The notes under the pieces are model-generated. The model worked only from the letters and a program-made list of their open reading frames with translations, searched no databases and had not been told where the DNA came from. Shown piece after piece: positions 9,848 through 24,481 of a stretch of 64,000 bases of DNA (positions are counted from its first letter, which is position 1; each line of letters starts with the position of its first letter). The position numbers and the translations under genes were made by a program. This stretch comes from a virus, in IMG/VR virus record IMGVR_UViG_3300037189_015081, positions 52,682 to 116,681 of that record; one strand, written 5' to 3'.

Positions 9848-10009
9848 ATGGAACTTGATGGTGTTATCGCGGCTGCGGAAAAGGTTGCTGCCGGGTTGGA
9901 ACGGGATGTTCAATTGGCGTCTACGCGCGAGGAGCATGTCCGGTTGACGGCTCGCTGGAACGAGGCCGTTGCCCTGGTGAATTTGCTCGTGGCGAATCAG
10001 CCGTCCTGA
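9848..10009 (+). CDS. small helical protein, 53 aa
   Basis: Hand translation MELDGVIAAAEKV...; abuts the upstream stop. Confidence 0.6.
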   Translation: MELDGVIAAAEKVAAGLERDVQLASTREEHVRLTARWNEAVALVNLLVANQPS

Positions 10010-10021
10010 TAGTATAAACGT

Positions 10022-10798
10022 ATGTTTAAAGTGACGAATCGCACGGCCGTGTCCTTTCTGGAAGAGGCACGGGCGCAACTCGGGTACGTGGCTCGCCCGA
10101 ACCGGGATAGTTTTTACGGTGGTCAGGTCGGGTATCAGAATCTCCCGTGGGACGGGTCGTTTATTGACGTTGTAGCACGGGTGGCCGGGGTATCGGACCG
10201 GGTGCCAGCGTGCGCGTATAGCCCGAACGGGCTTGCCGGGTTTGTACGGGACGGGCGAGTGTACCCGAATCCGCAGCCCGGGGACGTCGTGTTTTTTACC
10301 TTTTCAACGGGCGCGAATTTTGAGGCTCCGCATGTGGGGATCGTGTCCGATGTTTCAGCCTGGCGAACACACCGGGTGTTTAAATCCATTGAGGGCATGG
10401 TTGCGTCGGGTAACCCGAAGGGTATTCCGACGAATGACGGGGTTTATGAGCGTGTTCGCTACGCGCATGAGGTGCTTGCTTTTGGACGCCCAGCCTGGGG
10501 GCGCAAAATAAGCTACCGGGTGACGGGTGATGTTTTACCTAAACCCGTGAAGTTTACGCATGTTCAGCCCGGGAACCGGAAACCTTTGCGTGCTGTGCGT
10601 CTGGTTCAGGACGCGTTGGCCTTGACGGTTGGGCTTGAAGGTTTTAGTGACGGGGTGTTTGACCCTGTTACGCGTTCCGGGTACGCGTCATGGCAACGAT
10701 TGTTGGGGTATGTGGGTTCGGATGCGAATGGTGTACCTGACATGGAGTCATTGACCTTGCTTGGTTCGCGTACCGGGTTGTTTAGTGTTGCCCAGTGA
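10022..10798 (+). CDS. CHAP-like plus peptidoglycan-binding protein (catalytic Cys absent)
   Basis: PWDGSF (usually PWCAxF), PQPGDVVFF, HVGIV, SIEG; C-terminal VRLVQDAL...DGVFDPVTRSGYASWQ. Confidence 0.75.
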   Translation: MFKVTNRTAVSFLEEARAQLGYVARPNRDSFYGGQVGYQNLPWDGSFIDVVARVAGVSDRVPACAYSPNGLAGFVRDGRVYPNPQPGDVVFFTFSTGANFEAPHVGIVSDVSAWRTHRVFKSIEGMVASGNPKGIPTNDGVYERVRYAHEVLAFGRPAWGRKISYRVTGDVLPKPVKFTHVQPGNRKPLRAVRLVQDALALTVGLEGFSDGVFDPVTRSGYASWQRLLGYVGSDANGVPDMESLTLLGSRTGLFSVAQ

Positions 10799-10987
10799 AC
10801 TAGAACTGGAGTGGACTTATGGACAGCTTCTAACTTCCCTGTGGGGTTACTAGGAAGTTGGTTTCGTGTCGCTGGCGCGTGTTATATAAATCCATGATAT
10901 AACTGGCGCAAATTCCGCAAACACCTGATATAATTCTGTTATGGCGTTGCAACCCAGCATGCCTGTTGACGGAAGTGATATCACTAC

Positions 10988-11557
10988 ATGACAAATACCA
11001 AGATCGGATTCCACGAATCCCTTTTGAAGCGCAAGCGCGAGGCCGACGAGTTTCGCTCAATTGTTTTTGACGCGATCCTTGAGATCGGGCAGCCCGTGAC
11101 GGTTGCCGAGGTTCAGGCGTATGTCGGGCAGGAACTCAACCGTGAGTTCAATCAGCCTCGCATTCGCTACGCCTTTGACGCGCTTGTCCTTGAAGGGAAA
11201 CTTATTCACCGTAAGGAAACCGCACAGGAGCGGGTGCTCCGTTTCAACGGGCGTACCCCGGTTGCGGGTGCGGCTGAGCTGTACTATCCGGCGCACATCT
11301 CCGGGATTGTCCCAGCCCGCACGGCGGTGAGCGTGGTACCGGGTGTCGAGTTGACGGGTCCGCTTGGAGCCCGTGGTCGTAAGCCGGGTTCGAAAAACAA
11401 GTCGAAGCACGCGAAGCCCTCTGCGGGTTCGGTTTTTGACGGGCTTGCCTTTGATCTTCTCGTGGAGAAGCTTGTTGAAGCCCGCCACGCGGATCTCATT
11501 GCTGAGAACACCGGGTTGAAGAAGCAGCTCGCGGAAATCCGTAAACTCGTTTCATAG
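10988..11557 (+). CDS. winged-helix-like DNA-binding protein with C-terminal coiled coil
   Basis: QPVTVAEVQAYV...RIRYAFDALVLEGKL; first cassette promoter upstream. Confidence 0.6.
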   Translation: MTNTKIGFHESLLKRKREADEFRSIVFDAILEIGQPVTVAEVQAYVGQELNREFNQPRIRYAFDALVLEGKLIHRKETAQERVLRFNGRTPVAGAAELYYPAHISGIVPARTAVSVVPGVELTGPLGARGRKPGSKNKSKHAKPSAGSVFDGLAFDLLVEKLVEARHADLIAENTGLKKQLAEIRKLVS

Positions 11558-11651
11558 CCTGCCTAGCCCGGGGGAGCGTTTACCGGGCGGGTGACGGGTC
11601 GACTCCAGTGCCAGTGGCATTGGAGTCACACTCGTTTCTAAAACTGGTCAC

Positions 11652-11719
11652 TTTTTTGAAGTGTAGCCTGGGGAGTACTAATAAGCCCGACGGGCGCGTT
11701 TTTTGAAGTGTAGCCTGGG
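11652..11719. repeat. 21-nt direct repeat TTTTTTGAAGTGTAGCCTGGG x2
   Basis: Copies at 11652 and 11699. Confidence 0.9.
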
Positions 11720-11885
11720 CAGGGGTTTATAAGGCGCTGCCGGGCTGGTTTTTCAGGTCTGCTGCGAAGTCCTCGCAGGTTAAGCCAGCTTCCTGGTGGG
11801 TACACGGAAGAGGCTTGATGCTACCCCATCCCGATCCGAAACCGTGCCTGATATAATTGACACGTATCCAACCCAAGGAGGAAAA

Positions 11886-12059
11886 ATGGCAAAGTACAAG
11901 ATCTACGCAACCAAGACGATTACGCTTGAGGCGATCGTCGATGCTGAAAACGAATTCGAGGCATGGACTGCTTCGGATGAGCTCATCACCGATGACTTCG
12001 ATCAGGTCAACACCGTGTTCAAGATCGATGAGATCGTGTTCCAAGATCACCTGATATAA
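11886..12059 (+). CDS. small acidic protein (DpnD/PcfM-like)
   Basis: AAGGAGG RBS; MAKYKIYATKTITLEAIVDAENEFEA; its stop lies within the next promoter repeat. Confidence 0.65.
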   Translation: MAKYKIYATKTITLEAIVDAENEFEAWTASDELITDDFDQVNTVFKIDEIVFQDHLI

Positions 12060-12090
12060 TAGATATTGCTTCACAAGAGGCAAAATCCGA

Positions 12091-12309
12091 ATGACGAAAC
12101 GAAACGAGGACAACATGGATCCTTTTGAGTGTGAAATCGAAGGCTGCTTCAACTCAGCCATGCAGGACGCAACACTTTCCAGTGAAACCGAGGGCGATGA
12201 AACCCTGCAGCTCTGTGACGAGTGTCTCGAGTTCTTCAAGGAAGAGCTCGAGTATGAGATCGTCAAGATCGAACGCTACAACTCGACGTGGACAGGCGAC
12301 TCCGAATAG
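12091..12309 (+). CDS. small Zn-binding acidic protein
   Basis: CEIEGC...LCDEC; cassette context. Confidence 0.65.
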   Translation: MTKRNEDNMDPFECEIEGCFNSAMQDATLSSETEGDETLQLCDECLEFFKEELEYEIVKIERYNSTWTGDSE

Positions 12310-12381
12310 ATACCTGATATAATTAGATATATCAACGCGGAAACCCAAAATCCGCAATCCGAACGACGAAAGGAAACGCCC

Positions 12382-12696
12382 ATGGACGTTACCATCACCT
12401 CAGATAAAGAACGCGCCTGGTCCAAATTCAAGTCGACCAAGTACGACCACCCCTACCGTGAGAGCCGCGTGTTCGTCGACTTTGGCGAGAACGTGTGGGA
12501 ACACCTGCAGAACCGCAGGAACCGTCCCTACACGACGCTCAAGCCTCTCATCGCTGCCGCACTTCGTGAGCGCGGCATTCCCTTCACCAAGCTCTCATGG
12601 AACCGCTATGCGGGATGCGGCATGTGCCCCTGCTCCGGTGGGTTCATCATCGAGGGTGGACAGACTGGCCACGACCTCTGGGTCGCGGTCTCCTAA
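12382..12696 (+). CDS. hypothetical cassette protein
   Basis: Promoter plus RBS; WNRYAGCGMCPCSGGF. Confidence 0.75.
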   Translation: MDVTITSDKERAWSKFKSTKYDHPYRESRVFVDFGENVWEHLQNRRNRPYTTLKPLIAAALRERGIPFTKLSWNRYAGCGMCPCSGGFIIEGGQTGHDLWVAVS

Positions 12697-12799
12697 ACCA
12701 GGCGCCAGGTCGCGCATCCCCCCAGTGCGGCCTGGCACCTGATATAATTAGAACATAGCAACACCAACCCAATATCCGTAACGACGAAAGGAGTCCATC

Positions 12800-13228
12800 A
12801 TGGGCTACTACGTAAAGATCAAAGAATCCACATTCCGAATTCCCGCCGCAAACCTCGACGCAGCACTTGTCGAGCTCAAGGCACTCAACCACAAGCCAGA
12901 CGTCGAAAAGCACGGTGGCCACTTCAACAAGGATGGCGCCAAGGACGTTCGCTGGTTCTCGTGGATGCCGGAAGATTACGACAAGCACGTCAAGACCGCT
13001 GAAGAGGTTTTCGTTCTTCTCGGTTTCGAGTGCGAACAGGACCCGGCGACTGGTGATCTTCTCATCACCGACTACGACAATAAGACGGGTCAGGAGGAGC
13101 TCTTCCTTGACGCGGTCAAGAACCTGGTCAATCCAGACTCGTTCATCACCTGGATGGGTGAGGAAGGCGAGATGTGGCGCTGGACTCCTGAAGGAGTCTG
13201 GGAACCCGTCATCAGCTGGCGCAAATAA
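12800..13228 (+). CDS. hypothetical cassette protein
   Basis: Promoter plus RBS; MGY...KTGQE...WMGEEGEMWRW. Confidence 0.75.
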   Translation: MGYYVKIKESTFRIPAANLDAALVELKALNHKPDVEKHGGHFNKDGAKDVRWFSWMPEDYDKHVKTAEEVFVLLGFECEQDPATGDLLITDYDNKTGQEELFLDAVKNLVNPDSFITWMGEEGEMWRWTPEGVWEPVISWRK

Positions 13229-13320
13229 CCACGACAGGAGCGTCTGCCATGCGGCAGGCGCTCCACTGTCGTAGGCACCTGATATAATTAGCACATAGCG
13301 TAACGACGAAAGGACACGCC

Positions 13321-13728
13321 ATGACTACAAACCCAATCACCTACATCTACGACCCGGCTCAGATGGAAGCCATCTTCGAGGAGCTCACCCGTGAGGGTGG
13401 CGAGTACGAGGTAAACGCCATTTGGAACACCAAACGCATCTACGACGTTGACGCCCAGAAGTGGATTGACGTCGAGAACCAGACGCACGACACCTTCATC
13501 ATCAATGACGTGAGCTACCAGTGGTACCACGGTCACAACATGAAGCACCCGCAGACACCCACGCTCGTCGCGTTCTGGACGTCCAATCACCGCGAGGATG
13601 ACTGGGACGAGCACGAGGTCGAGATCGACGCGACTGCGGCTGAGGTCTACGCCTTCATGCGTAGCGTCAATGGCTACGACTTCTATGATGGTCCCGACAC
13701 CATCGCTGAGGCGCGAGGTGAGAGGTAA
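13321..13728 (+). CDS. acidic hypothetical cassette protein
   Basis: Promoter plus RBS. Confidence 0.75.
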   Translation: MTTNPITYIYDPAQMEAIFEELTREGGEYEVNAIWNTKRIYDVDAQKWIDVENQTHDTFIINDVSYQWYHGHNMKHPQTPTLVAFWTSNHREDDWDEHEVEIDATAAEVYAFMRSVNGYDFYDGPDTIAEARGER

Positions 13729-13907
13729 TGACACTGCGCGCGGTCATCGACGTCTACTGTGGATACTGTGATGGTGTCCATGAGACGCAGCCCGTCGAGG
13801 GAATCATCGATGGTGACAGTAAGTCCTTCAGCTGGATCGCGTTCTGCCCTGAATGTGATCTCCACATCGAGGGACAGGACTCGATCGAAAAGCTGAATCT
13901 CAAGTAG
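13728..13907 (+). CDS. small Zn-ribbon protein, 59 aa
   Basis: Hand translation; CGYC...CPEC; TAATG coupling. Confidence 0.65.
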   Translation: MTLRAVIDVYCGYCDGVHETQPVEGIIDGDSKSFSWIAFCPECDLHIEGQDSIEKLNLK

Positions 13908-13953
13908 GCACCTGATATAATTAGATATATCAAAACGACGAAAGGAAAATGCC

Positions 13954-14211
13954 ATGGGAATTTACTACCAGGACATCATCAAGGTCGAGGAGAAACTCTT
14001 CGAGGACCTGACCACTGCACTCGAGTGTGCACGCGCGGACTACGACAAGTGGTGCACGGTGAGCAAGAGCTACACCGAGCTGCGTGACGTTTTCCGTGAC
14101 GACGCGACTGGCGAGATCGTCATCAAGTACAAGTACGATGACGACCTTGACGAGTCGGAGCGAGAGGATCGCTTCAGCGTCGAGTGGATGGAAATCGCGA
14201 CCAGCGTCTAA
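13954..14211 (+). CDS. acidic hypothetical cassette protein
   Basis: Promoter plus RBS. Confidence 0.75.
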   Translation: MGIYYQDIIKVEEKLFEDLTTALECARADYDKWCTVSKSYTELRDVFRDDATGEIVIKYKYDDDLDESEREDRFSVEWMEIATSV

Positions 14212-14258
14212 GACCTGATATAATTAGATCATCAACAAAACGACGAAAGGAAACTGCC

Positions 14259-14723
14259 ATGGAAAATATCCAGAGCAAGATCATCGGAAAAGCTCTCTAC
14301 CTTGAGCTCCGCAACGGAAACTACACCAACCAAATCATTCTGATGCCGGAAGGCACCAGCGCGGAGGGAAAGTACGTGCCCACAACCACGTACCGTCGCC
14401 GCATCTCTGAGTCGACGCCGCGCAAAACCTGGCGCGTCATGTCCAGCCTGTTCCGCAGCGAGCGAACCATCGATGGAACCCTCGTTCCGCTCGGTCGCGA
14501 GCACGCGCTCGCCACAGTCACAGATCGCCTTGGCTACACCAAGGGACTGTTCGACCAGCTCGTCAGTGGAGGGTACAGCATCTACAAGCAGCCCATCACT
14601 GTCGAGGTTACTCCCGAGGACCTGGTCGACGTGTACAACGCGAAGACTCCCTACAAGGTCATCGCGCGAATCACCCGTTCGCGCCGTGCGCTTGGCTTTG
14701 GCGAAGACCTCTTCGTCAAGTAG
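14259..14723 (+). CDS. hypothetical cassette protein
   Basis: Start re-called to the ATG after ACGACGAAAGGA. Confidence 0.75.
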   Translation: MENIQSKIIGKALYLELRNGNYTNQIILMPEGTSAEGKYVPTTTYRRRISESTPRKTWRVMSSLFRSERTIDGTLVPLGREHALATVTDRLGYTKGLFDQLVSGGYSIYKQPITVEVTPEDLVDVYNAKTPYKVIARITRSRRALGFGEDLFVK

Positions 14724-14771
14724 CACCTGATATAATTACATTACCCAAACAAACGACGAAAGGACACGCCC

Positions 14772-15752
14772 ATGAATCCCACGGATTATGATGTGTTATA
14801 CCCAGGACTCGGAGAGATCCTGAACTCAGCTGCCACCCAGTCGGTGAACGACGACCTCGCGACACTGCTCGCGAAGTACATGGTCGACCAGGGCAAGGCA
14901 GTCGCAAAGACTCCCACCAAGAAGAAGGTTGTTCCAGTCGTGAACGCTGACGCACTGCTTGGCTCATCCAAGTACAAGCGCCCGAACGGCGACGACTACT
15001 TCACCCGCAAGTGGGGCGAGCACGATGACGTCGAGGTTGTGCGCAAGGCGCGCGACAAGTCACAGTTCATCCTTCTGTACGGTGCGCCAGGTTGCGGTAA
15101 GACCGCACTGGTCGAGGCCGCCTTTGGTGAAAACCTTCACACCGTTCTCGGTAGCGGTGACACCGAGGTCTCCGACCTTGTAGGTGGATACGTCCAGACG
15201 CCGTCTGGTGGATTCGTCTGGGAGGATGGTCCTCTGCTCAAGGCTGCAATCGCTGGTGAGCCGCTGCTCATCGATGAGGTTGGTCTCATCGACCCGAAGG
15301 TCCTGTCGATCGTGTACGGTCTGATGGATGGTCGCCGTGAGTACACTGTCACTGCGAACCCTGAGCGCGGTACCGTGAAGGCGAAGGATGGTTTCTACGT
15401 CATCGCCGCCACGAACCCGAACGCTCCTGGTGTTCGACTCAGCGAGGCGCTCCTGTCGCGATTCACCATGCACGCTGAGATGACGACTGACTGGTCACTC
15501 GCCAAGAAGCTTGGCGCTCCTGCCACCATCGTCACTGCGGCGCAGAACCTCGCGAAGAAGCAAAAGGAGGGCGAGGTAAGCTGGGCACCACAGATGCGCG
15601 AGCTTCTCGCGTTCCGTGACGTCTCTGCGGACTATGGCACCAAGTTCGCTATCGCGAACCTGCTGGCTGCTTCTCCTGAGATGGATCGCCCGGTCGTCGC
15701 TGACGTGTTCACTCGCGTCTTTGGCGAGGAGTGCCGTCCAGCCAAGATCTAA
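14772..15752 (+). CDS. MoxR/CbbQ/CobS-type AAA+ ATPase
   Basis: Walker A GAPGCGKT, Walker B LLIDE, ATNP, SEALLSRF. Confidence 0.9.
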   Translation: MNPTDYDVLYPGLGEILNSAATQSVNDDLATLLAKYMVDQGKAVAKTPTKKKVVPVVNADALLGSSKYKRPNGDDYFTRKWGEHDDVEVVRKARDKSQFILLYGAPGCGKTALVEAAFGENLHTVLGSGDTEVSDLVGGYVQTPSGGFVWEDGPLLKAAIAGEPLLIDEVGLIDPKVLSIVYGLMDGRREYTVTANPERGTVKAKDGFYVIAATNPNAPGVRLSEALLSRFTMHAEMTTDWSLAKKLGAPATIVTAAQNLAKKQKEGEVSWAPQMRELLAFRDVSADYGTKFAIANLLAASPEMDRPVVADVFTRVFGEECRPAKI

Positions 15753-15758
15753 CAAGCC

Positions 15759-15794
15759 CGGTGCCGCGGTTTCTTCGTCGTTCCCGCCGCACCG
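15759..15794 (+). promoter_or_regulatory. 3'-UTR hairpin with loop antisense to the AACGACGAA RBS leader
   Basis: Stem CGGTGC.GCGG/CCGC.GCACCG; loop TTTCTTCGTCGTTC. Confidence 0.65.
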
Positions 15795-15897
15795 TTCCCC
15801 AAGGAGGGGGCCTGATTTGGGTTCAGGCTCCCTCCATCTAAAACGACCTGATATAATTAGAACATAGCATAACGACATCTTGACGGAAGGACACGCT

Positions 15898-17682
15898 ATG
15901 GCACACATTCACTCTTCAAACACCCGCGCAGAGGCAACGCCATCCAAATGGCTCCGACTTGGCGCACAGCTCGGTGAACTCGTAAACACCTGGGCACATC
16001 GCACTGACCTGGTTGCCTACGTTGGTCCAGGCGCTGGTGGTCAAGCTCCCGCATGTTACAACCCGCGGCTCGCCGAGGTCGAGGTAAACGTAACCGTGGC
16101 ATTCGGTGCGGCAACCACTCCAGAGATGATTGACAACATCACCAAGCGCGACACGCAGTTCGAGTACCCCAAGGCAACAGGCGCCATCTACCACGAGGCG
16201 CTTCACGCCAAGTACTCACGCTGGTCGCTCGAGGATGCAGCACGCGAACTCAGCGAAAAGGAGCTCCAGGCAATCAACCTTCTCGAGGAAACGCGCATCG
16301 AGGCAAATGGCGTCAATGACGTCCCGAAGAACCAAGTGTTCCTTCGCGCCTGCGCACTGGAGATTGTTCTCGCTGACGCCGAGGAAGGACTCGGAAAGAT
16401 GACGTCCACTCGTGCGGCTGCCCAGCTCGCTGGACTCACACTCGCGCGCGTTGACGCTGGTGTCCTTGAGCGCAGCGACGTGGACATCATCGCTGACGTT
16501 CTCGATGGGATGCTCGGCGAAGACCTCATCATCAAGCTGCGTTCCATCTGGAATCGTTTCCAAATGCACGACCAGCACTATGACGCAACGCCGCTCTACG
16601 ACCTTGCCCGTGAATGGGTTGCGGTCGTCGAGGAAGCCGCCAAGGATGACGAGCCAGAGGGCACTGATGGCGAGGGTGACGAAGTACCCGAACACATCAA
16701 AGAACTTCTCGACGCTCTTGTAAATGATGCCGAGGCAACTGGGTTTGCTGCCGCAGACCAGGCTGCCGACCAGGCTGAAGGTGAGGCGTGGATCGAGATC
16801 GCTGGTGGAAAGTCGCGCGCGGCAAAGGAGCGTCAGGAAAACGCCAGGACTGCCACCACTGTCTTCAGCAAGGGCACTGGCCCGATGGCAACCAGCAAGT
16901 CAAGTTCGCGTCTCTATGAGAAGCGCAAGCCAACCTCTGAGGAGCGCGTTGCCGCGGTCAAGGTGGCGACCATGCTTGAGAAGGCGAAGTACCGTGAGCG
17001 CGACATGCACGAGATCCAGTCCGTGACTCCTCCCGGTCGCCTGCGCACTCGAGCTCTTGTTCAGGGCGCGGCACTCAAGTCTAAGGGAATCATGGCGCAG
17101 ACCGAGCCGTGGCGTCGTCACGTGCGCAAGCACACCGATGAGCCAACGCTCAAGGTTGGCGTGATGGTCGACATCTCTGGTTCTATGGGTTCCGCGATGG
17201 TTCCAATGGCTGTCACCGCGTGGGTCATGTCTGAGGCGTCTAAGCGCGTTCAGGCACGCGCCGCGATGGTGTACTACGGTAGCGACGTGTTCCCGACCTT
17301 GAAGCCAGGTCAGAGTCTCGACCAGGTGCACGTGTATACTGCGCCTGACGGAACCGAGAAGTTCGACAAGGCGTTCAAGGCGATCGACGGTGCGCTCGAT
17401 CTTCTGCACGGTGATGGCGCCCGCTTGCTCGTCGTGGTGAGCGATGGACACTACACCTACGAGGAGACCGCGCGAGCCGAAGCGTGGGTCAAGCGTTGTC
17501 ACGCTGAAGGCGTTGCCGTCCTGTGGTTGCCGTTTGACTCTGGCATGATGGCTCAGCGAGTCTGCAAGGGCACTGACGCGATTGTGCTCAGCGGTCGACT
17601 GGATCCCGCCGAGGCAGCAACCAAGATTGGTCAGGCTGCCGCGATGGCGCTGACCAAGGCAGGCGCACGCGCGGCTGCATAA
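15898..17682 (+). CDS. VWA-domain protein with HEXXH motif (CobT-like partner of the AAA+ ATPase)
   Basis: YHEALH; MIDAS DISGSMG...DGT...VVSDG; ATG 15898 follows GACGGAAGGA. Confidence 0.85.
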   Translation: MAHIHSSNTRAEATPSKWLRLGAQLGELVNTWAHRTDLVAYVGPGAGGQAPACYNPRLAEVEVNVTVAFGAATTPEMIDNITKRDTQFEYPKATGAIYHEALHAKYSRWSLEDAARELSEKELQAINLLEETRIEANGVNDVPKNQVFLRACALEIVLADAEEGLGKMTSTRAAAQLAGLTLARVDAGVLERSDVDIIADVLDGMLGEDLIIKLRSIWNRFQMHDQHYDATPLYDLAREWVAVVEEAAKDDEPEGTDGEGDEVPEHIKELLDALVNDAEATGFAAADQAADQAEGEAWIEIAGGKSRAAKERQENARTATTVFSKGTGPMATSKSSSRLYEKRKPTSEERVAAVKVATMLEKAKYRERDMHEIQSVTPPGRLRTRALVQGAALKSKGIMAQTEPWRRHVRKHTDEPTLKVGVMVDISGSMGSAMVPMAVTAWVMSEASKRVQARAAMVYYGSDVFPTLKPGQSLDQVHVYTAPDGTEKFDKAFKAIDGALDLLHGDGARLLVVVSDGHYTYEETARAEAWVKRCHAEGVAVLWLPFDSGMMAQRVCKGTDAIVLSGRLDPAEAATKIGQAAAMALTKAGARAAA

Positions 17683-17687
17683 CAAGC

Positions 17688-17738
17688 TCCAGTGCGGGGA
17701 CGGTTACCTTCCGTCAATCGTCCCGTCCCTGCACTGGG
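17688..17738 (+). promoter_or_regulatory. 3'-UTR hairpin with loop antisense to the TTGACGGAAGG RBS leader
   Basis: Stem of about 16 bp; loop TTACCTTCCGTCAATCGTC. Confidence 0.7.
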
Positions 17739-17794
17739 TTCTCTGTCAGGGCGACCTGATATAATAAAACTAACAACGACGAAAGGACAGCATT

Positions 17795-18034
17795 ATGGCT
17801 GAACAAATCTTCATCTCACACAACGGATCCGGAACCTTCTTCGGTCTGGACGACGACGTGCAGCTCATCAGCGCGACGGACGTCGAGAACAATGACAGCG
17901 AAGCACTTGTCTCCGGTGACATCTCCGACGTTGCGGTTGACTACGGGTACACGATTACGCCCGAGCTCGCACAGATTCTCTACGAGGTAGCAATGAACTA
18001 TCACGAAAAGGGAGTAGTACCCGTGATACAATAG
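17795..18034 (+). CDS. acidic hypothetical cassette protein
   Basis: Promoter plus RBS. Confidence 0.7.
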   Translation: MAEQIFISHNGSGTFFGLDDDVQLISATDVENNDSEALVSGDISDVAVDYGYTITPELAQILYEVAMNYHEKGVVPVIQ

Positions 18035-18160
18035 TATCTACGGCCGCGGAGGCTACCACTAGTTTCCGCGGCCAAACACATACAACTGAATACCCGCGGC
18101 TGATGCGGGACTGTGTGCAAGAAGAAGCGCGGGAAATACCCACGCAGGAAGGAGAACACA

Positions 18161-18757
18161 GTGACAAACAAGCAAACCAAAAAAGAACAACTAAACCAGC
18201 TCCGCGAAAAGTGGAACTGGGACTCCAAGGAAGCGATCGAAGACCGGGTCACTTTCATTCTCAACAAAGCCCGCCAGGATTACCTGCGGGTGTACGGCAA
18301 GGCGGACGGGATCGCACTGGCGCGGTATCAGTCCGAGCTACTGCACGAAGATCGTGCGGTCGGGACGCAGCGTGCGATCCGACGACAGGAGCGGGCACGG
18401 GCTCGTAACCTGATCCTTGAAACCTTCAAGGATTTCCCACGGGACACTGTCACTGGCATGATTGCAGCCGGGGTGGTAGACGAGATTACCGGGTCAGAGC
18501 CCGAGGACGTCTTCGCCCAGATTGAGCTCGATCCAAGCGTGGCACGCGTCGAGACAGGACCAATCAGCCTGCCTAGCCCGGGGGATATGACGGGTGCTGA
18601 CGGGTCACTATTTGACGACCTGACTAGCCCGACGAACCTTGGCGCGCTTTTTGGCAACCGGGTTGCCTTGTCAAGCAGGTCAGCGAAGGCTCGTGAGATC
18701 GTGCAAGCGGTTTCTGGATCTGTCCAGTACCCTACAACAGAGTACCTAGCCTCGTAG
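18161..18757 (+). CDS. hypothetical protein
   Basis: GTG after an AAGGAG RBS. Confidence 0.6.
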   Translation: MTNKQTKKEQLNQLREKWNWDSKEAIEDRVTFILNKARQDYLRVYGKADGIALARYQSELLHEDRAVGTQRAIRRQERARARNLILETFKDFPRDTVTGMIAAGVVDEITGSEPEDVFAQIELDPSVARVETGPISLPSPGDMTGADGSLFDDLTSPTNLGALFGNRVALSSRSAKAREIVQAVSGSVQYPTTEYLAS

Positions 18758-18865
18758 GTTCAAGCTACTCGTAACGGAAGTGGTCACCAGGTTACTGGTG
18801 GCCATTTCTGTCATAGGTGCCTGATATAATTAGATATATCAACGCAATGACGAAAGGAGCCGATT

Positions 18866-19084
18866 ATGGCTGCTAATGAAATCCCTGAAACTCTGGTCAT
18901 CAACCTCAAGTTCTCTGTCGATCGAGACTGGATCGAGGAATACATCGCCGATGGCGAGGAAGTCACCTTGCAGATGATGCTTGACGCTCTTCGCGAACAG
19001 GCACTCGAATGGCTCGCAGATGACGCGTACAACATGGTTCAGACCGCTGACGTCTTCGACGGAGACGGAAACCAGGTCTGCTAG
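18866..19084 (+). CDS. acidic hypothetical cassette protein
   Basis: Promoter plus RBS. Confidence 0.7.
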   Translation: MAANEIPETLVINLKFSVDRDWIEEYIADGEEVTLQMMLDALREQALEWLADDAYNMVQTADVFDGDGNQVC

Positions 19085-19240
19085 TTGATTGGGTGTCACA
19101 GGCACCTGATATAATTAGATACATAAGCCCAAACCAAACGGTTTGGATATCCGGAGCGAAAGCACCTGATATAATTAGATACATCAAGCCAAACGGTTTG
19201 GTAAACGACGCAAGACAAAAACCGAAAGGACGTGATGATT

Positions 19241-19567
19241 ATGGCTACTGTCGAGATCACCACTACCATTACCACCCAGACCGAGGTCGCTGACCTCACC
19301 GGAACGAACGCAGCGGCCTTGCTCGCCGAGTTCGAGGAAACCAAGGCTGCCATCAAGGCGCTCGAGGAAAAGAAGGATGCTGCTGAAGCTCTCCTTCGCG
19401 AGCTGCTCGGTGACGCGGAGGTTGCCACCATCAACGGCGAGAAGCTGTTCAAGCTCGTACACGGCATGAACACTAGTTTCGACCGCGAGCTCATGAAGAA
19501 GGCATTCCCTGAAGCCTTCAGCGCGACGCTCAAGAAGAAGGCTTACACCTACATCAAGGCGATGTAG
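19241..19567 (+). CDS. coiled-coil hypothetical cassette protein
   Basis: Promoter plus GAAAGGA RBS. Confidence 0.7.
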   Translation: MATVEITTTITTQTEVADLTGTNAAALLAEFEETKAAIKALEEKKDAAEALLRELLGDAEVATINGEKLFKLVHGMNTSFDRELMKKAFPEAFSATLKKKAYTYIKAM

Positions 19568-19709
19568 GTTCCCAGACTGGATACCGCACGTATGCAGAAT
19601 GTTGCACAACGCGTGCGGTATCCTCCGGCCCTGGTGAGAATCCCCCCTCTCATCAGGGCCATTTCCATTAGTGCGCGGTATCGTAGACACCAGGTCAACA
19701 AGGAGAATC

Positions 19710-19880
19710 ATGAACACAGTTGCTGAGTTACTCAGTGTGGTAAAGACACTCGCGCCTTACGCGCGGATTGAGCAATATCTTGATGGCAACATTGTCATCG
19801 TCCTCAATGCGCGGTTGGCAGATGACAACGCGCACCTTGAACCTCTGGACGCTGACGTTTTTGACGCGGCAGGAGAGTAG
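19710..19880 (+). CDS. small hypothetical protein
   Basis: AAGGAG RBS before ATG 19710. Confidence 0.6.
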   Translation: MNTVAELLSVVKTLAPYARIEQYLDGNIVIVLNARLADDNAHLEPLDADVFDAAGE

Positions 19881-19950
19881 ATACCGCGCGGTCATTTGAA
19901 GTCGCCTGATATAATCATTACAGCAATACAAAATGACGAAAGGAGTCCTC

Positions 19951-20163
19951 ATGGACGCTACCAAACACGACTGCGAAGACGCCGGTGGGAACCTTGACTA
20001 CTGGGCAGAGACCTTCACCTGTGAGGACTGCGGCGCGGTACGCGCGGCAACTCAGAGCGAGCTTGATGACTACCGTGCCATGCTCCAGGAGGACTTTGAA
20101 AGGGACATGGCAATCATCTACCAGCAAGAACTCCGTGACGCCTCTGACGCTCTGGAGAGCTAG
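19951..20163 (+). CDS. small Zn-ribbon acidic protein
   Basis: HDC...CEDCG; promoter plus RBS. Confidence 0.65.
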   Translation: MDATKHDCEDAGGNLDYWAETFTCEDCGAVRAATQSELDDYRAMLQEDFERDMAIIYQQELRDASDALES

Positions 20164-20241
20164 CGCCCCGAGACTCGAGTACCTGATATAATAGGTACTA
20201 GCAACACGGAAACACAAAGACAAATGACGAAGGGAGTTGCC

Positions 20242-20424
20242 ATGGCAATTCGACTGACAGACGGAAACGCGTTCGCCATCATCGGTGAGGGACGCGAGGA
20301 ACTCAAAAAGCAGGGACGCAGCGATGAAATCGCCCAGTTCACTGCTGAAATGACCGCAGGTGACTACAATCACCTTTTGCAGACCATGCTCCGCTGGTTC
20401 CCAGACGTAGAGGTTGGTGAGTAA
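20242..20424 (+). CDS. conserved small phage protein
   Basis: DGNAFAIIG...GDYNHLL motif; promoter plus RBS. Confidence 0.7.
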   Translation: MAIRLTDGNAFAIIGEGREELKKQGRSDEIAQFTAEMTAGDYNHLLQTMLRWFPDVEVGE

Positions 20425-20772
20425 ATGAAGACAGCGCTTCGCGTCAACGCGGATCTCACCACTGAGGTCCTCGACCTGACCAATGACGAATACGACCAGC
20501 TCAGCAGAGCGGTGGATGGCTGGATTCAGGCCGTCAACCTAAACCCAAATCTCACCATCTGGTGTAATGAGGAAGGCAAGCTAAACGGCTTGCCAGTCAA
20601 CATCGCGGGAACAGCGGTCTGGGAGGAATACTTCGGCCGCACGGACGTAATCGTCGGAAACGTCGTATTCACTGGCACACCAGATGAGAATGGCGACACT
20701 CTTCCGCTCGCCGACTTCCAGGTTGCACAACTCCAGAAGATCGTCGCCAGCGTTCGCGAGCTGACGCAGTGA
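20425..20772 (+). CDS. DUF3846 family protein
   Basis: VDGWIQAV...WCNEEGKLNGLPVN...DVIVGNVVFTG. Confidence 0.85.
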   Translation: MKTALRVNADLTTEVLDLTNDEYDQLSRAVDGWIQAVNLNPNLTIWCNEEGKLNGLPVNIAGTAVWEEYFGRTDVIVGNVVFTGTPDENGDTLPLADFQVAQLQKIVASVRELTQ

Positions 20773-20960
20773 CCGAGCGCAAGAAGGCGAAAGGTGCGGG
20801 CGTCTGGGAAATCCTGGACGCTCACACCGGCGCACGTCTGAACAAGTTTCGTGCGCGGCGTCAAGCAGATGTCGATCGAAACATGCAAATCGTTCTCGTG
20901 GGTCTCGGTAAACAGCCAGACGACGTCAAACTCGTGTTCGTCGCAGACTGGGAAGACTAG
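20769..20960 (+). CDS. hypothetical protein
   Basis: GTGA coupling. Confidence 0.6.
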   Translation: MTERKKAKGAGVWEILDAHTGARLNKFRARRQADVDRNMQIVLVGLGKQPDDVKLVFVADWED

Positions 20961-21021
20961 ACCGCGCGGTAACTAGAGTACCTGATATAATTAGAATATC
21001 AGCACGACGAAAGGACACCAC

Positions 21022-21192
21022 ATGAACACTGTAAAAGAAGTTCTGGAACTCCTGGAAACAAAAATAACCGAGACTCAGGAAGAAATCGACGCGGCAGACG
21101 CCGCAGGCGAAACTTCAGAGCTCGAGTACCTTGACGGTCTCATGGAAGCGTACACGCTTATCGAAACCGCAATCAAAACCAAGAGAGACTGA
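21022..21192 (+). CDS. small acidic helical protein, 56 aa
   Basis: Hand translation after promoter 20981 and its RBS. Confidence 0.7.
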   Translation: MNTVKEVLELLETKITETQEEIDAADAAGETSELEYLDGLMEAYTLIETAIKTKRD

Positions 21193-21199
21193 GGTAGCC

Positions 21200-21412
21200 A
21201 TGACAGAAAACATCTGCACGGACTGCGGGCTAACGCCAGGCTATGAAATAGCCCAGCACTCTCTCAACAAGGCCGCCTTTATCAAACTTGACTCTGTGAA
21301 AGGCGTCATGATGACCGCAAACCAGCCAGACTACGCTGCGGCCATTGAAAAGGTTCTCACGGAATGGCGAACGCACGCTCTTCCAGCCTGTGATCCGTTG
21401 GCAATATCGTGA
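21200..21412 (+). CDS. hypothetical protein
   Basis: GAGG RBS; MTENICTDCG. Confidence 0.6.
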   Translation: MTENICTDCGLTPGYEIAQHSLNKAAFIKLDSVKGVMMTANQPDYAAAIEKVLTEWRTHALPACDPLAIS

Positions 21413-21639
21413 AAGCCGTCTACTGGATCCAGGCCAGAATGAAAGGTGCCGTTTGGTACCTTGAACGAGGATACATACCAGTCTGGCTGTATGCGGCAAT
21501 CCACTTCACACTCTGGGCGATTGGGTTTACATTACTCGTTCTTCTCCAGCCGCTTATTCTTCTCGCCGACAGGCGCGAATCCCGGTCCCGACAGGGACTA
21601 GAAAATGAAACAATGACGAAAGGACAGGTGGTCGTATGA
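21409..21639 (+). CDS. small membrane protein
   Basis: Hydrophobic stretch; coupled overlaps. Confidence 0.5.
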   Translation: MKAVYWIQARMKGAVWYLERGYIPVWLYAAIHFTLWAIGFTLLVLLQPLILLADRRESRSRQGLENETMTKGQVVV

Positions 21640-21935
21640 CAACCGAAATCGAAACAGCAACTGCACCCACGGCAACAGCGAAGAAGCTCGTTCGCGTAAA
21701 ACCATACACGCGAACTGAAGAGCTCCCTGAACTTGCCGAGGGAGTGACCCTTCCCGCAGGATACACGCCCGCCTACTTCCGTAAGCGCAAGACCCTTGCG
21801 GTTTTGCGCGCGGTTGACCGAACGCACTACTTGGTGTTCGACACCTCAACTGGAAACAAGTTGAAGGTGGGAACCTGCAAGGAAGCGTCGTCCACGATGA
21901 GCGAGATTCGTCGAGGACTCAAGACCTTCGCGTAA
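21636..21935 (+). CDS. basic hypothetical protein
   Basis: TGACGAAAGGA upstream; terminator-like hairpin at about 21954-21992 downstream. Confidence 0.65.
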   Translation: MTTEIETATAPTATAKKLVRVKPYTRTEELPELAEGVTLPAGYTPAYFRKRKTLAVLRAVDRTHYLVFDTSTGNKLKVGTCKEASSTMSEIRRGLKTFA

Positions 21936-22064
21936 ATGCCTCCTCGCGAAGAAAAAGGAGAGACCCGGACTGGACCCCGGGTCTCTTCCTTTATGCGGCT
22001 GATGACCAGTCTGGAGTGCATGATATAATTAGAATATCACGGCAACCAGACGGAAGGAGATGCC

Positions 22065-22235
22065 ATGGCTAAAAACAAAAAGCCTAAGGGCACGGAGAAT
22101 AAGGCGTACATCGAAGGTATGCGTCAGATTCGCCGCTCCAATGCCGCGGGAACGCATGACAGCCGTCCCAACCGCGAACGCACTCGTTCCGCTGCGCGGA
22201 ACAAGGCAATTCACGAATATCGTGACATCTCGTAG
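22065..22235 (+). CDS. small basic protein, 56 aa
   Basis: Hand translation MAKNKKPKG...RRSNAAGTHDSRPNRERTRSAA after the variant promoter and GACGGAAGGA. Confidence 0.7.
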   Translation: MAKNKKPKGTENKAYIEGMRQIRRSNAAGTHDSRPNRERTRSAARNKAIHEYRDIS

Positions 22236-22311
22236 CAAATAGAGTAAATACTCCAAAGCACCTGATATAATAGATATATCAGCACAACGACGCATGACGG
22301 AAGGAACCATC

Positions 22312-22545
22312 ATGAATGAAAAACCAAAGTACATCATCCGACGAGCCATCATTGGACTCGCAAGCGTACCATTCATCGCCTCCATCTACACCATCGGATA
22401 CTCACTGCTCGTACTCGCAGGAGTAAACCCAACCAGCACGTTCGACGGTGTAATGGTGAACGGTGTCATCATCGGATTCGCGGTAGCAATCGTCTTCACC
22501 TTCATCAAGCAGGTAGTGCGATTCGCGGCATGGATCACGGAGTAA
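22312..22545 (+). CDS. 2-TM membrane protein
   Basis: Promoter plus RBS; two hydrophobic helices. Confidence 0.7.
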   Translation: MNEKPKYIIRRAIIGLASVPFIASIYTIGYSLLVLAGVNPTSTFDGVMVNGVIIGFAVAIVFTFIKQVVRFAAWITE

Positions 22546-22649
22546 CGACATGACAACCAGCACGTACGCAATCTTCGTATCAATTCCGTTCACCAAACTT
22601 CAACTCGAGATCGAGATCGATCTCCCGCTCTTCAGAAAGGCAGGACGCC

Positions 22650-22922
22650 ATGAGTCTTGAAAATCTACAAATCATCTCAACCGATCACCACCGCAACGGT
22701 GTCGGAGGACACCCGTTCCGCGTCGCACTTGTCGACGACCCGAACGAAGGCGACACGAAACTCGTCATCATGTTCGCGGAACCAGGTTACACCGCGGTGC
22801 TATCGCTCGACAAGCTGATTCAGGACGAGGACATCGCCTTTGGATCAAACTCGTGGAGAGGCGACAAATACGAAGACGCTCTCCGCGACAAGCTCTTCTC
22901 CAGCGATGACGAGGACGACTAA
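22650..22922 (+). CDS. conserved phage hypothetical protein
   Basis: HHRNGVGGHPF...NSWRGD. Confidence 0.7.
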   Translation: MSLENLQIISTDHHRNGVGGHPFRVALVDDPNEGDTKLVIMFAEPGYTAVLSLDKLIQDEDIAFGSNSWRGDKYEDALRDKLFSSDDEDD

Positions 22923-22924
22923 CC

Positions 22925-23254
22925 ATGACCTCGACAGTTTCGATCCGTACGATCCTTGACCAAATCGTTTCCGGTGAACACGATGACCATCTTGCGGTTA
23001 TCATGAGCACCGCGAGTACGCGGCTAACCAGAGTACGCGGCAGCGTTGAGTATGGAATCGGCGACAGGGTCAGATTCAACTCAGCCTGTGGAACCAAGTA
23101 CCTGATTGGACACACTGCCCAGGTCGTGGGCAAACGACGCACCAAGGTCGTCGTCAAACTCGACAAACCAACAGGTCGATTCATTCGCATGACATCCGAT
23201 GGACCAGTCAGCGCGGAAATCACTGTTCCACCTGCAATCATTGACCTCGCCTAG
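22925..23254 (+). CDS. SH3/KOW-like protein
   Basis: IGDRVRF...KYLIGHTAQVV...TKVVVKLD. Confidence 0.65.
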   Translation: MTSTVSIRTILDQIVSGEHDDHLAVIMSTASTRLTRVRGSVEYGIGDRVRFNSACGTKYLIGHTAQVVGKRRTKVVVKLDKPTGRFIRMTSDGPVSAEITVPPAIIDLA

Positions 23255-23307
23255 TCAATACAGCCATTTTCCACACCTTCTTGATACTATTCACCTAAGG
23301 AGTTACC

Positions 23308-23472
23308 ATGACAGAACCATTGATAAACGCCTGGTACCCTGACGGAACCTGGGTTGGCTCATTCGTAAGCGCGGAATACGCAAAGGAATGGCTAACCAAC
23401 GCGGGTTACAAGATCGACGAGTGCGAGGTTTCAAACCGTCGCTACGTTCGTCCTGAAAAGAAAGAAGAATAG
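23308..23472 (+). CDS. small hypothetical protein, 54 aa
   Basis: TAAGGAG RBS; hand translation. Confidence 0.6.
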   Translation: MTEPLINAWYPDGTWVGSFVSAEYAKEWLTNAGYKIDECEVSNRRYVRPEKKEE

Positions 23473-23476
23473 CAAC

Positions 23477-23626
23477 ATGGAACCATGGACAATTCTCGGT
23501 TGGATTCTCGTTTTCCTCGCCGTGTTCGTAGGGGTTGTGTTCTGTATCGCCGTTATCGCCGCGCTATGGATCTCGATCAAGGGTGCAGGCGCCGACCTTC
23601 GCGGTAAAAGCCACAATAAGAACTAG
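23477..23626 (+). CDS. small membrane protein, 49 aa
   Basis: MEPWTILGWILVFLAVF... Confidence 0.55.
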   Translation: MEPWTILGWILVFLAVFVGVVFCIAVIAALWISIKGAGADLRGKSHNKN

Positions 23627-23777
23627 CGCAATGGACAGCAAACTTTCCAGCGCGGTTATCGCCTTGGCCTGCGCGGTTGCCATCGTGATTATTCTTGCTA
23701 TCTCAGCAACAGGTGCCAGGTAAAATCTTCCCAACCTACCTGATATAATAAGTAATACAAGAGACGAAAGGACGCAC

Positions 23778-24053: not shown

Positions 24054-24062
24054 GGAGCAAAC

Positions 24063-24344: not shown

Positions 24345-24481
24345 AAAACGCAATACTGTTCAGTACCTACGGAATGACAGCCCCGTGTCACCATTGCGGC
24401 AGCCCGGTTCGCGAAGGAATAAAGTTCTGCGACCCGTACTGCAGCGTGAGCTACAAGGCGAAACAGCAAGGTGCCAAATGA
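24341..24481 (+). CDS. small Zn-ribbon protein, 46 aa
   Basis: CHHCG...FCDPYC; coupled overlaps on both sides. Confidence 0.55.
   Translation: MKNAILFSTYGMTAPCHHCGSPVREGIKFCDPYCSVSYKAKQQGAK

Follow-up and report, generated by a model that had tools for sequence, protein, structure and literature searches.

A conserved gene module in an uncultured lake phage

The ATPase and VWA genes studied here are two adjoining early genes of an uncultured lake phage, and both were analyzed within a stretch of 64,000 nt (the window) of its 116,681-nt genome. The genes and promoter-like elements of the locus are listed below.

14259 to 14723, + strand: gene U, an ORF of 154 aa, first gene of the conserved U-ATPase-VWA module
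14726 to 14736, + strand: promoter-like element CCTGATATAAT before the ATPase gene
14772 to 15752, + strand: AAA+ ATPase gene (CobS/MoxR-like), 326 aa; Pfam AAA_5, 1.2e-20; PHROG ATPase, 3.6e-52
15847 to 15857, + strand: promoter-like element CCTGATATAAT before the VWA gene
15898 to 17682, + strand: VWA-domain gene (CobT-like), 594 aa; Pfam VWA_CoxE, 4.5e-4, below the curated cut-off

Gene U gave no Pfam or PHROG match and was assigned to no family; a U homolog lies immediately 5' of the ATPase gene in 102 of 127 loci, and the order U-ATPase-VWA is fixed across relatives. The homolog of the VWA protein in DSL-LC01 is annotated as a cobalamin biosynthesis protein. Within the window, CCTGATATAAT is present in 24 copies with at most one mismatch, against 0.32 expected. 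The ATPase and VWA genes sit within a cassette array.

Large-loop hairpins behind the ATPase and VWA genes

Three hairpins lie behind the two genes.

15759 to 15794, + strand: hairpin 1, with a 14-nt loop (15770-15783) that carries the anti-leader TTCGTCGTT (15774-15782)
15803 to 15835, + strand: hairpin 1b, a predicted fold with a 13-bp stem and the 7-nt loop TTTGGGT (15816-15822)
17689 to 17737, + strand: hairpin 2, with a 15-bp stem and a 19-nt loop (17704-17722) that carries the anti-leader CCTTCCGTCAA (17707-17717)

Hairpins 1 and 2 had been proposed in a preliminary description of this DNA, and both folds stand out from shuffled sequence (z of -4.45 and -5.41, respectively, with an equally good fold in 0 of 200 shuffles each). 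Both elements also open with TAACAAGC, the shared start that had been noted behind the two stops, and the TAA within it is the stop codon itself. Hairpin 1b is a third hairpin, absent from that description, and its position corresponds to that of a GGGTG-type anti-leader hairpin in relatives.

A simple pattern scan of the + strand found no terminator-like site at hairpin 1 or 2. Judged by the features of an intrinsic terminator (a GC-rich stem, a loop of 3 to 8 nt and a U tract), the stem is present, the loops of 14 and 19 nt are too large and the T run is absent; terminators of actinobacteria may differ from the simple pattern. An Rfam scan of positions 10000 to 27000 on both strands returned 0 matches at E values up to 1. 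The positions of the hairpins and the promoter-like elements at 14726 and 15847 merely suggest that each leader and its hairpin would be carried on one transcript. Among the sequencing runs listed as containing this stretch, none is recorded as RNA. Placement of the hairpins in a 3'-UTR is an assumption, and we treat them as candidates for such elements only. In many relatives no promoter precedes the next gene, which would put the hairpin in an intercistronic position, and our flag for TATAAT in the gap is not a promoter test.

Complementarity between loops and leaders

The leader segments that face the loops, and the leaders of other genes that share an RBS class with the VWA gene, are as follows.

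14743 to 14749, + strand: ACCCAAA, 5' end of the ATPase leader, candidate target of loop 1b
14752 to 14764, + strand: ATPase leader, candidate target of loop 1; AACGACGAA occupies 14752-14760
15872 to 15890, + strand: VWA leader, candidate target of loop 2; TTGACGGAAGG occupies 15880-15890 and spans the SD, and a second helix of 4 bp is predicted at 15872-15875
22049 to 22057, + strand: GACGGAAGG-class leader of another gene, a possible trans target; further ones at 22296-22304 and 25241-25249

The preliminary description had read each loop as antisense to the RBS of its own gene, and the coordinates proved exact in both cases. Loop 1 contains TTCGTCGTT, the exact 9-nt complement of AACGACGAA, and the duplex with the ATPase leader is predicted at -13.2 kcal/mol and continues over the SD AAGGA, with the G-U extension proposed earlier also appearing in the duplex calculation. 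Loop 2 contains CCTTCCGTCAA, the exact 11-nt complement of TTGACGGAAGG, with a predicted duplex of -21.6 kcal/mol. The 7-nt loop of hairpin 1b complements, over its entire length and exactly, the ACCCAAA with which the ATPase leader begins. Both anti-leader complements sit in loops (mean unpaired probability of 0.90 for loop 1 and 0.85 for loop 2), and the leaders on their own have unpaired probabilities of 0.77 and 0.52.

When the loops were shuffled, a duplex matching the real one arose in 0 of 2000 trials for the VWA gene and in 72 of 2000 for ATPase loop 1, which makes loop 1 by itself only modestly significant. Among 5700 pairs of leaders and 3' flanks from different genes in the window, a match of at least 9 nt was found in 61 and one of at least 11 nt in 7. 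The anti-leader 9-mers each occur once on the + strand of the whole genome, both of them in these loops, and among 144 crudely called genes of this genome only the ATPase and VWA genes have an own match in a hairpin loop.

Within the window, the specificity of the loops reaches the level of the RBS class only. The recurrence of GACGGAAGG in further leaders was borne out, with 4 copies in the genome, every one of them in a leader (15882, 22049, 22296 and 25241). Loop 2 forms predicted duplexes of -17.5 to -24.3 kcal/mol with the three other leaders of this class, the best of which exceeds its own, and loop 1 reaches -16.7 kcal/mol with another leader in the window. The motif complementary to loop 1 is present in 8 window leaders and that complementary to loop 2 in 4. 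It had been suggested that such pairing would explain why the RBS is conserved well beyond the SD. We rejected this as a general explanation, because 31 of the 49 loci taken as representatives have a generic GAC[GA]AAAGGA leader, but only 10 of those 31 have a TTCGTCGT loop and 21 have no such loop in the fetched stretch.

Covariation among related phages

A megablast search of positions 14600 to 18100 against a phage collection gave no match, and relatives were gathered by protein searches, with gene starts assigned by a crude caller. About 125 related contigs, all from freshwater actinophages, keep the pairing of loop and leader, each clade with sequences of its own. Our first set, from IMG/VR, comprised 17 VWA and 16 ATPase clusters at 80% amino acid identity, with representatives that we chose. 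The summed own matches reached 156 for the VWA gene versus 120.2 +- 7.3 after permutation (observed sum reached in 0 of 20000) and 116 for the ATPase gene versus 100.3 +- 4.5 (9 of 20000). A hold-out set of 31 new metagenome clusters, 27 of them with a complete ATPase gene, gave 254 versus 198.6 +- 7.1 for the VWA gene and 208 versus 171.3 +- 6.4 for the ATPase gene, and the observed value was reached in 0 of 20000 permutations for either one. Disjoint sister pairs, scored as own minus cross match, were positive in 14, negative in 0 and zero in 8 cases for the ATPase gene (p = 6e-5), and positive in 9, negative in 2 and zero in 13 for the VWA gene (p = 0.033). Across 49 representative loci, an own match of at least 8 nt was found for 58% of ATPase genes (43 loci) and 61% of VWA genes (49 loci) versus 3.7% of 383 other genes; the own match was shorter than 8 nt in 18 of the 43 ATPase and 19 of the 49 VWA loci. 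The permutation, hold-out, sister-pair and neighboring-gene tests thus agree, and the covariation that the preliminary description had put forward as a check is observed. That loops and leaders stay complementary because of RNA pairing is strongly supported by these comparisons.

Compensatory changes can be followed in individual relatives. One two-sided difference is CACCCACA/TGTGGGTG versus CACCTACA/TGTAGGTG, and the two-part VWA pairing shows GGACAA/TTGTCC and GGGACA/TGTCCC as well as TGACACACG/CGTGTGTCA versus GGACACACG/CGTGTGTCC. In 15 relatives, the loop of hairpin 2 has an unvarying core of 10 nt, and both sides have changed in 5 of the 11 pairs of its stem; covariation at the positions flanking this core in the main VWA clade, judged by eye, is mixed. 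Loops of the hairpin 1 family are found on unrelated stems in L047, L021, the L003/5/11 clade and phage A3Wally, the last with an own match of only 7 nt. The L003/5/11 clade carries two tandem hairpins with the same loop, and a large-loop hairpin behind its VWA gene is absent. Some relatives have a tRNA or additional ORFs between the two genes, and there the hairpin stays with the ATPase gene. Among cultured phages, a similar match of 11 nt is seen in Microbacterium phage Pumpernickel (host M. paraoxydans NRRL B-14843), between the hairpin at the ATPase tail and the leader of gene 226. In the Gordonia phages Forza and GodonK, the sequence behind the ATPase gene gave no own match of at least 7 nt.

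Position of the targets and competing leaders

Most targets lie over the SD zone (VWA, 27 of 33 clusters; ATPase, 16 of 25), and 4 extend to the AUG. The remaining ATPase targets (9 of 25) are wholly upstream of -14 and would not necessarily block the SD. The distance from the stop codon to the start of the hairpin is at most 12 nt in many clusters (ATPase, 16 of 25; VWA, 21 of 33), and in 8 of the 25 ATPase clusters the stem closes around the stop codon; these hairpin-start figures are noisy.

The VWA gene's own leader is the sole best target in 24 of 33 clusters. For the ATPase gene, where the ranking took in 24 clusters and left out 21 with an own match below 8 nt, its own leader was the sole best in 9, tied in 8 and outmatched in 7. 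The competing leaders are mostly those of gene U in the same unit, and ATPase tails match the U or the ATPase leader in 32 of 42 clusters, sometimes by means of two distinct loops, one per leader. In 27 of 33 VWA and 12 of 25 ATPase clusters, the complete matched segment occurs only once in the fetched locus.

Discussion

The preliminary description had offered two routes by which the loops might act, end-to-end pairing within an mRNA or silencing by 3'-derived sRNAs. Covariation upholds RNA pairing as such, and as to the route the comparative data lean toward pairing within a single message over action in trans. An intra-message logic follows from the VWA gene's own leader being the sole best target in most clusters and from ATPase tails matching leaders of their own unit. 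Our preferred explanation, to which we give somewhat better than even credence, is that intra-mRNA pairing of loop and leader limits translation initiation in a manner like that of icaR and hok. This explanation infers a shared transcript for the two partners, contact between them in vivo and a repressive effect. The two hairpins behind the ATPase gene and the one behind the VWA gene would be RNA elements with open loops complementary to the initiation region of their own message. With transcription of a gene complete, its loop would pair with the leader of the same RNA in a loop-to-linear contact of the kissing type, spanning 1 to 1.8 kb. This would hide the SD or the start codon, or else the standby region, reducing further 30S loading and probably the life of the mRNA too. 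As a side effect, leaders of other genes in the same RBS class could become targets in trans.

A possible but doubtful elaboration is a clasp gated by ribosomes: with the anti-RBS at the stop codon or shortly after it, a terminating ribosome would melt or cover the hairpin and thereby free the RBS of that gene for a single further round of initiation. Initial loading of ribosomes would take place during transcription, before the clasp forms; afterward one ribosome would enter for each one that leaves, and a message stripped of ribosomes would lock itself and then be degraded. If this were true, the U-ATPase-VWA module would give a fixed output from each mRNA.

A trans-acting RNA remains a rival to single-message pairing since specificity within the window does not go beyond the RBS class. 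Here, 3'-derived sRNAs or mRNA tails would pair with all leaders of one class and silence a set of early genes, and the match to a gene's own leader would be a by-product of class membership. The 8 and 4 window leaders with motifs complementary to loops 1 and 2, other window leaders whose duplexes are as good or better, and the 15 of 24 scored ATPase clusters in which another leader ties or beats the gene's own would all fit such an RNA, and the tandem same-loop hairpins of the L003/5/11 clade resemble multi-loop sRNAs. We nevertheless think it unlikely, at about one chance in five, because it leaves unexplained why the gene in front of every loop has the leader that matches it, many loops match gene-private segments that occur once in the fetched locus, the rival leaders belong mostly to gene U of the same unit, the + strand pattern scan found no terminator-type 3' end, and the generic leader persists in the 21 loci whose fetched stretch has no such loop.

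Improbable too is a contact that protects or activates the message, either by shielding the leader from RNase cleavage or 5'-end attack or by placing the stop next to the start, where terminating ribosomes could reload. The ATPase targets upstream of the SD would suit this, as would loop 1b, which in the window pairs with the first bases of the presumed transcript. There is also a precedent in hbs mRNA of Bacillus subtilis, where a 14-bp contact between leader and 3'-UTR modulates RNase Y cleavage in the leader (PMC5737220); the hbs contact resembles ours in joining leader and tail but does not occlude the SD. Most targets here span the SD or AUG and would compete with the 30S subunit, and the leaders, largely unpaired even by themselves, would offer such a contact little local structure to relieve. 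We regard as highly improbable that the hairpins are ordinary ones of gene ends, serving as terminators or processing sites and complementary by chance or composition, or that they are DNA inverted repeats marking mobile cassettes. Pyrimidine-rich loops facing purine-rich RBSs do raise the number of random matches, loop 1 alone was equaled in some shuffles, and the genes lie in a cassette array; chance is nonetheless opposed by the hold-out permutations, the sister pairs, the neighboring-gene control and stems that covary around a fixed loop. The DNA-level reading was rejected, as one arm is a working SD and the gene order is fixed. A minus-strand reading, with the loops as RBS, was also rejected: judged by eye, the spacing to any ATG in the window is wrong, and L015 has no ATG.

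Long-range pairing within an mRNA has been met before. The fold-back of hok mRNA was originally backed by comparative analysis, and the T7 gene 1.2 / RNase III case belongs to the same background. The precedents of icaR, hok tac/fbi and long-range aSD-like sequences make the preferred mechanism workable. In icaR mRNA of Staphylococcus aureus, a pyrimidine-rich 3' segment pairs with the mRNA's own SD region, hinders initiation and creates an RNase III substrate (PMC3868564). The phage elements likewise place a segment complementary to the gene's own SD region at the 3' end, and compensatory change is found here. Unlike icaR with its long 3'-UTR, they display the anti-RBS in the loop of a predicted hairpin 0 to 60 nt past the stop codon, occur on two or three adjacent genes and have repeatedly altered their sequence in step with their target. 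The tac/fbi pairing of plasmid R1 closes the full-length hok mRNA over a long distance from 5' to 3' and keeps it untranslated (PMC9841398). That system concerns a small toxin mRNA, which 3' trimming activates, which has an antisense partner and whose SD is hidden indirectly, whereas the phage loop faces the RBS directly. Membership in the hok type was rejected, as its criterion is a type I toxin mRNA and the genes here encode an AAA ATPase and a VWA protein.

In B. subtilis, the RBS can be paired by aSD-like 8-mers that lie several hundred nucleotides downstream; these promote decay as well as blocking initiation, and they are reported to be depleted from genes (Gill et al. 2025 preprint, PMC12697547). 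In contrast to these, the phage sequences are positively kept, displayed in loops and extended past the SD to gene-private bases. The SAS/ESAS of Cluster K mycobacteriophages are phage-private conserved RBS sequences of many non-structural genes, for which an RNA or a protein binder was left open (PMC3203893). The available part of that report covers the leader side only, with no complementary RNA, whereas the phage studied here has a complementary loop for some leaders, its generic class being unaccounted for. Our literature search, limited in coverage, returned no description of anti-RBS loops behind dsDNA phage genes, and the words "UTR" and "hairpin" are both absent from the DSL-LC01 paper.

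Communication between the ends of bacterial mRNAs is represented by a few single-gene cases (icaR, hok and hbs) and one recent synthetic screen. The phage case is natural and gene-specific, and both of its sides have been rewritten many times over dozens of lineages, which provides comparative proof of pairing together with a ready series of matched loop and leader variants. A bench test is feasible because of the 11-nt match in the cultured phage Pumpernickel. For part of the phage-private extended RBS motifs, a concrete RNA partner can now be offered. Each message probably has its translation held down by its own tail, and phages may be able to equip single early genes with a private translational brake.

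The early-gene array and its two longest genes

The full genome of this phage comprises 116,681 nt, 64 kb of which lie in the window. Among named phages, Actinomycetia phage DSL-LC01 (74%) and Microbacterium phage Pumpernickel (60%) are nearest to it by ATPase amino acid identity. An early-gene array spans about 10.9 to 25.8 kb of the window, and each of its genes is headed by CCTGATATAAT (24 copies with at most one mismatch, 0.32 expected), after which an A/C-rich leader terminates in ACGACGAAAGGA or, in four genes, in GACGGAAGGA. The ATPase and VWA genes, which are longer than any others in the array, are a CobS/CobT-like pair. The gene upstream of them, here called U, lies 9 to 50 nt from the ATPase gene in the loci of related phages. 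The features concerned are the following.

14259-14723, + strand, gene U, about 155 aa, directly upstream of the ATPase gene and conserved in 102 of 127 loci
14772-15752, + strand, AAA+ ATPase gene (Pfam AAA_5, 1.2e-20)
15759-15794, + strand, hairpin 1 with a 14-nt loop (loop 1; fold z -4.45, 0/200 shuffles as good)
15803-15835, + strand, second ATPase-tail hairpin with the 7-nt loop TTTGGGT
15898-17682, + strand, VWA-domain gene (VWA_CoxE, a weak match under the curated cut-off)
17689-17737, + strand, hairpin 2 with a 19-nt loop (loop 2; fold z -5.41, 0/200 shuffles as good)

The RBS classes GACGAAAGGA and GACGGAAGGA differ by one base, the second occurring at window positions 15882, 22049, 22296, and 25241 against eight generic leaders; in main-clade relatives the two are equally frequent. 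Fewer bases of the GACGGAAGGA class pair with the standard 16S tail. Elsewhere in the array, the 10-nt palindrome ACCGCGCGGT (about 19883-19892 and 20961-20970), possibly a protein site, abuts the stops of two genes and closely precedes the promoter element that follows.

Loops complementary to the leader of the preceding gene

The preliminary description had placed words complementary to the ATPase and VWA leaders behind the respective genes, and the coordinates of both loop words and both leader words were exact on re-checking. The two anti-leader words sit in the loops, with predicted unpaired values of 0.90 (loop 1) and 0.85 (loop 2), and neither anti-leader 9-mer has a second copy anywhere on the + strand of the genome. 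The predicted duplex of loop 1 with its leader (-13.2 kcal/mol) extends across the SD with one bulge, and that of loop 2 (-21.6 kcal/mol) consists of 11 bp plus a second helix of 4 bp; shuffled loops equaled these energies in 72/2000 and 0/2000 cases, respectively. Among 5700 leader/flank pairs of different window genes, matches of at least 9 nt were found in 61 and of at least 11 nt in 7. The complementarity of loop 2 alone is thus far beyond chance, and that of loop 1 alone only modestly so. The second ATPase-tail hairpin, absent from the preliminary description, has a loop exactly complementary to a word from the start of the ATPase leader, ACCCAAA (14743-14749). Genome-wide, only the ATPase and VWA genes among 144 crudely called genes had a match of at least 9 nt in a hairpin loop. 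Neither hairpin 1 nor hairpin 2 fitted the terminator pattern in a pattern scan, and Rfam returned no match.

Co-variation of loops and leaders in related phages

Loci of relatives were drawn from IMG/VR (44, by VWA protein search) and from metagenomes (the best 80 of 152, by profile search). Most have a hairpin immediately after the VWA stop whose loop is complementary to the VWA leader of the same phage, in a clade-specific sequence. The main clade has CCTTCCGTCA / TGACGGAAGG and the DSL-LC01 clade TTGTCCTTT(A) / (T)AAAGGACAA; further variants include TCTTCTCC / GGAGAAGA, CCCCTTTG / CAAAGGGG, and TCGTTTCC / GGAAACGA. DSL-LC01 itself has a 13-nt match located further upstream in the leader. 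In one large group the pairing is bipartite and in antiparallel order, with a GGACAC-type word near the leader 5' end and the SD facing two words of the 3' element, and leader and 3' element have changed in concert (GGACAA/TTGTCC, GGGACA/TGTCCC, and TGACACACG/CGTGTGTCA versus GGACACACG/CGTGTGTCC). The 10-nt loop core does not vary among the 15 main-clade sequences compared, and both partners have changed in 5 of the 11 stem pairs. No large-loop hairpin was found behind the VWA gene in the L003/5/11 clade of loci. Loci L026, L027, and L029 contain ACACAGACCCTT as a 12-nt direct repeat, with one copy in the VWA leader and the other in the first 25 nt past the VWA stop, adjoining the anti-RBS element.

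The ATPase tails follow this pattern, with still greater variation. Loops of the TTCGTCGTT type are borne on unrelated stems, two of them in tandem in the L003/5/11 clade; pairing variants include TGTGGGTG / CACCCACA versus TGTAGGTG / CACCTACA, as well as, over the start codon, CATTGGGTG(TC) / (GA)CACCCAATG. The loops CTTCCTTTC, GGGTGTCCT, CCCTATGTC, and CTCCCTGTG, among others, each face their own leader. In cultured Pumpernickel, the apex of the ATPase-tail hairpin matches the gene 226 leader over 11 nt. The annotated TTG start of its gene 228 may be misplaced, since it falls inside this strong hairpin (4811-4860). In the distant cultured phage A3Wally, the ATPase-tail hairpin (about 4300-4345) has the loop TTCGTCGTTG, the same word as in window loop 1; its match to the gene 242 and gene 244 leaders is only 7 nt (CAACGAC).

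Many relatives (L004, L009, L017, L026, L028, L030, and others) also have a stem of the GCCAAG...CTTGGC type around the ATPase stop codon, with compensating changes between clades (GCGAAG/CTTCGC, GCGAGAA/TTCTCGC, GCAAGGA/TCCTTGC), and in some the loop surrounding the stop is the anti-SD itself. This stem is absent at window positions 15740-15760 and in the window's TTCGTCGTT-loop relatives.

Own-leader matches exceed permuted pairings

Loci were clustered at 80% VWA identity, and the first set consisted of representatives that we chose from 17 (VWA) and 16 (ATPase) clusters. Each leader (-45 to +3) was compared with each 3' flank, and the summed own matches, those between a gene's leader and its own 3' flank, were set against permuted pairings. 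The procedure was then fixed and run on clusters of new metagenome loci only; a complete VWA gene with flanks was available in 110 of 127 loci, giving 49 clusters, 31 of them new, of which 27 were usable for the ATPase gene.

Summed own matches (nt) against permuted pairings
First set, VWA: 156 vs 120.2+-7.3, reached in 0/20000
First set, ATPase: 116 vs 100.3+-4.5, reached in 9/20000
Hold-out, VWA: 254 vs 198.6+-7.1, reached in 0/20000
Hold-out, ATPase: 208 vs 171.3+-6.4, reached in 0/20000

The loop-leader covariation for which the preliminary description had proposed a check is strongly supported for both genes. Because relatives inherit both sides by descent, we also formed disjoint nearest-neighbor pairs. 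For the ATPase, the own match exceeded the cross match in 14 pairs, equaled it in 8, and never fell below it (p = 6e-5); for VWA it was larger in 9 pairs, equal in 13, and smaller in 2 (p = 0.033). Mean own match was 8.37 nt for VWA (at least 8 nt in 61% of 49 loci) and 7.74 nt for ATPase (58% of 43 loci), against 5.53 nt (3.7%) for 383 other + strand genes of the 49 representative loci, whose few hits were promoter palindromes or lay outside loops. Own matches stayed below 8 nt in 19/49 VWA and 18/43 ATPase loci.

Targets and specificity

Own matches of at least 8 nt all lay within a predicted hairpin, mainly unpaired in 27/33 VWA and 18/25 ATPase clusters, and their leader targets overlapped the SD zone in 27/33 and 16/25; among the 25 ATPase targets, 4 extend to the AUG, and the 9 outside the SD zone are upstream of it. 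Compared with the other targets of its locus, the VWA leader was the unique best in 24 clusters, tied in 6, and beaten in 3, and the ATPase leader in 9, 8, and 7. The leaders competing for ATPase tails were mostly those of gene U: of 42 clusters, 24 had a tail match of at least 8 nt to the U leader, 23 one to the ATPase leader, and 32 one to at least one of them, and tails such as those of L073 and L087 have a loop for each. In loci with a tRNA gene or extra ORFs inserted ahead of the VWA gene, the hairpin remains with the ATPase gene. Taken together, these matches, separate loops, and the constant position of the hairpin indicate that the ATPase tail bears putative anti-RBS loops for cistrons of its own unit. 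The insertions themselves include a tRNA gene (L017, L019, L034, L041), small ORFs, and a 697-nt insert with an ORF (L021), each with its own promoter element.

The loops had also been offered as the reason why the RBS is conserved beyond the SD. This does not hold for the generic extended RBS, as the leader occurs in 31/49 loci and the TTCGTCGT loop in only 10 of these 31. The GACGGAAGG leader and the CCTTCCGTC loop, by contrast, occur together in 13/16 loci, with no case of the loop lacking its leader.

Mechanism and significance

We lean towards a reading, drawn from the sequence comparisons, in which pairing within one mRNA would limit initiation once the gene is fully transcribed: the tail loop of a gene transcribed to its end would pair with the leader of the same mRNA, and initiation at the covered SD or AUG would be limited. 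The leaders alone are largely open (predicted unpaired 0.77 and 0.52), so a loop covering the SD or AUG can only lower access. Contacts of this kind are repressive in the solved cases of icaR (PMC3868564), hok tac/fbi (PMC9841398), and long-range aSD-like words (PMC12697547). A protective 5'-3' contact by analogy with hbs (PMC5737220) seems quite improbable.

The loops might instead act in trans on leaders of the same class, which we regard as unlikely. Loop 2 is predicted to pair with the three other GACGGAAGG leaders of the window at -17.5 to -24.3 kcal/mol, and loop 1 with generic leaders at up to -16.7 kcal/mol, and within the window loop specificity reaches the level of the RBS class only.

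The type of mechanism, pairing within one mRNA, is already known. The closest described private RBS motifs are the SAS elements of Cluster K phages (PMC3203893), for which the authors left the binding partner open, and the body of literature searched contained no description of anti-RBS loops in a dsDNA phage. What is new is an anti-RBS in a loop directly after the stop codon, its occurrence on a conserved three-gene phage module, and the apparent repeated co-evolution of both sides. The 11-nt match in cultured Pumpernickel makes bench testing feasible.
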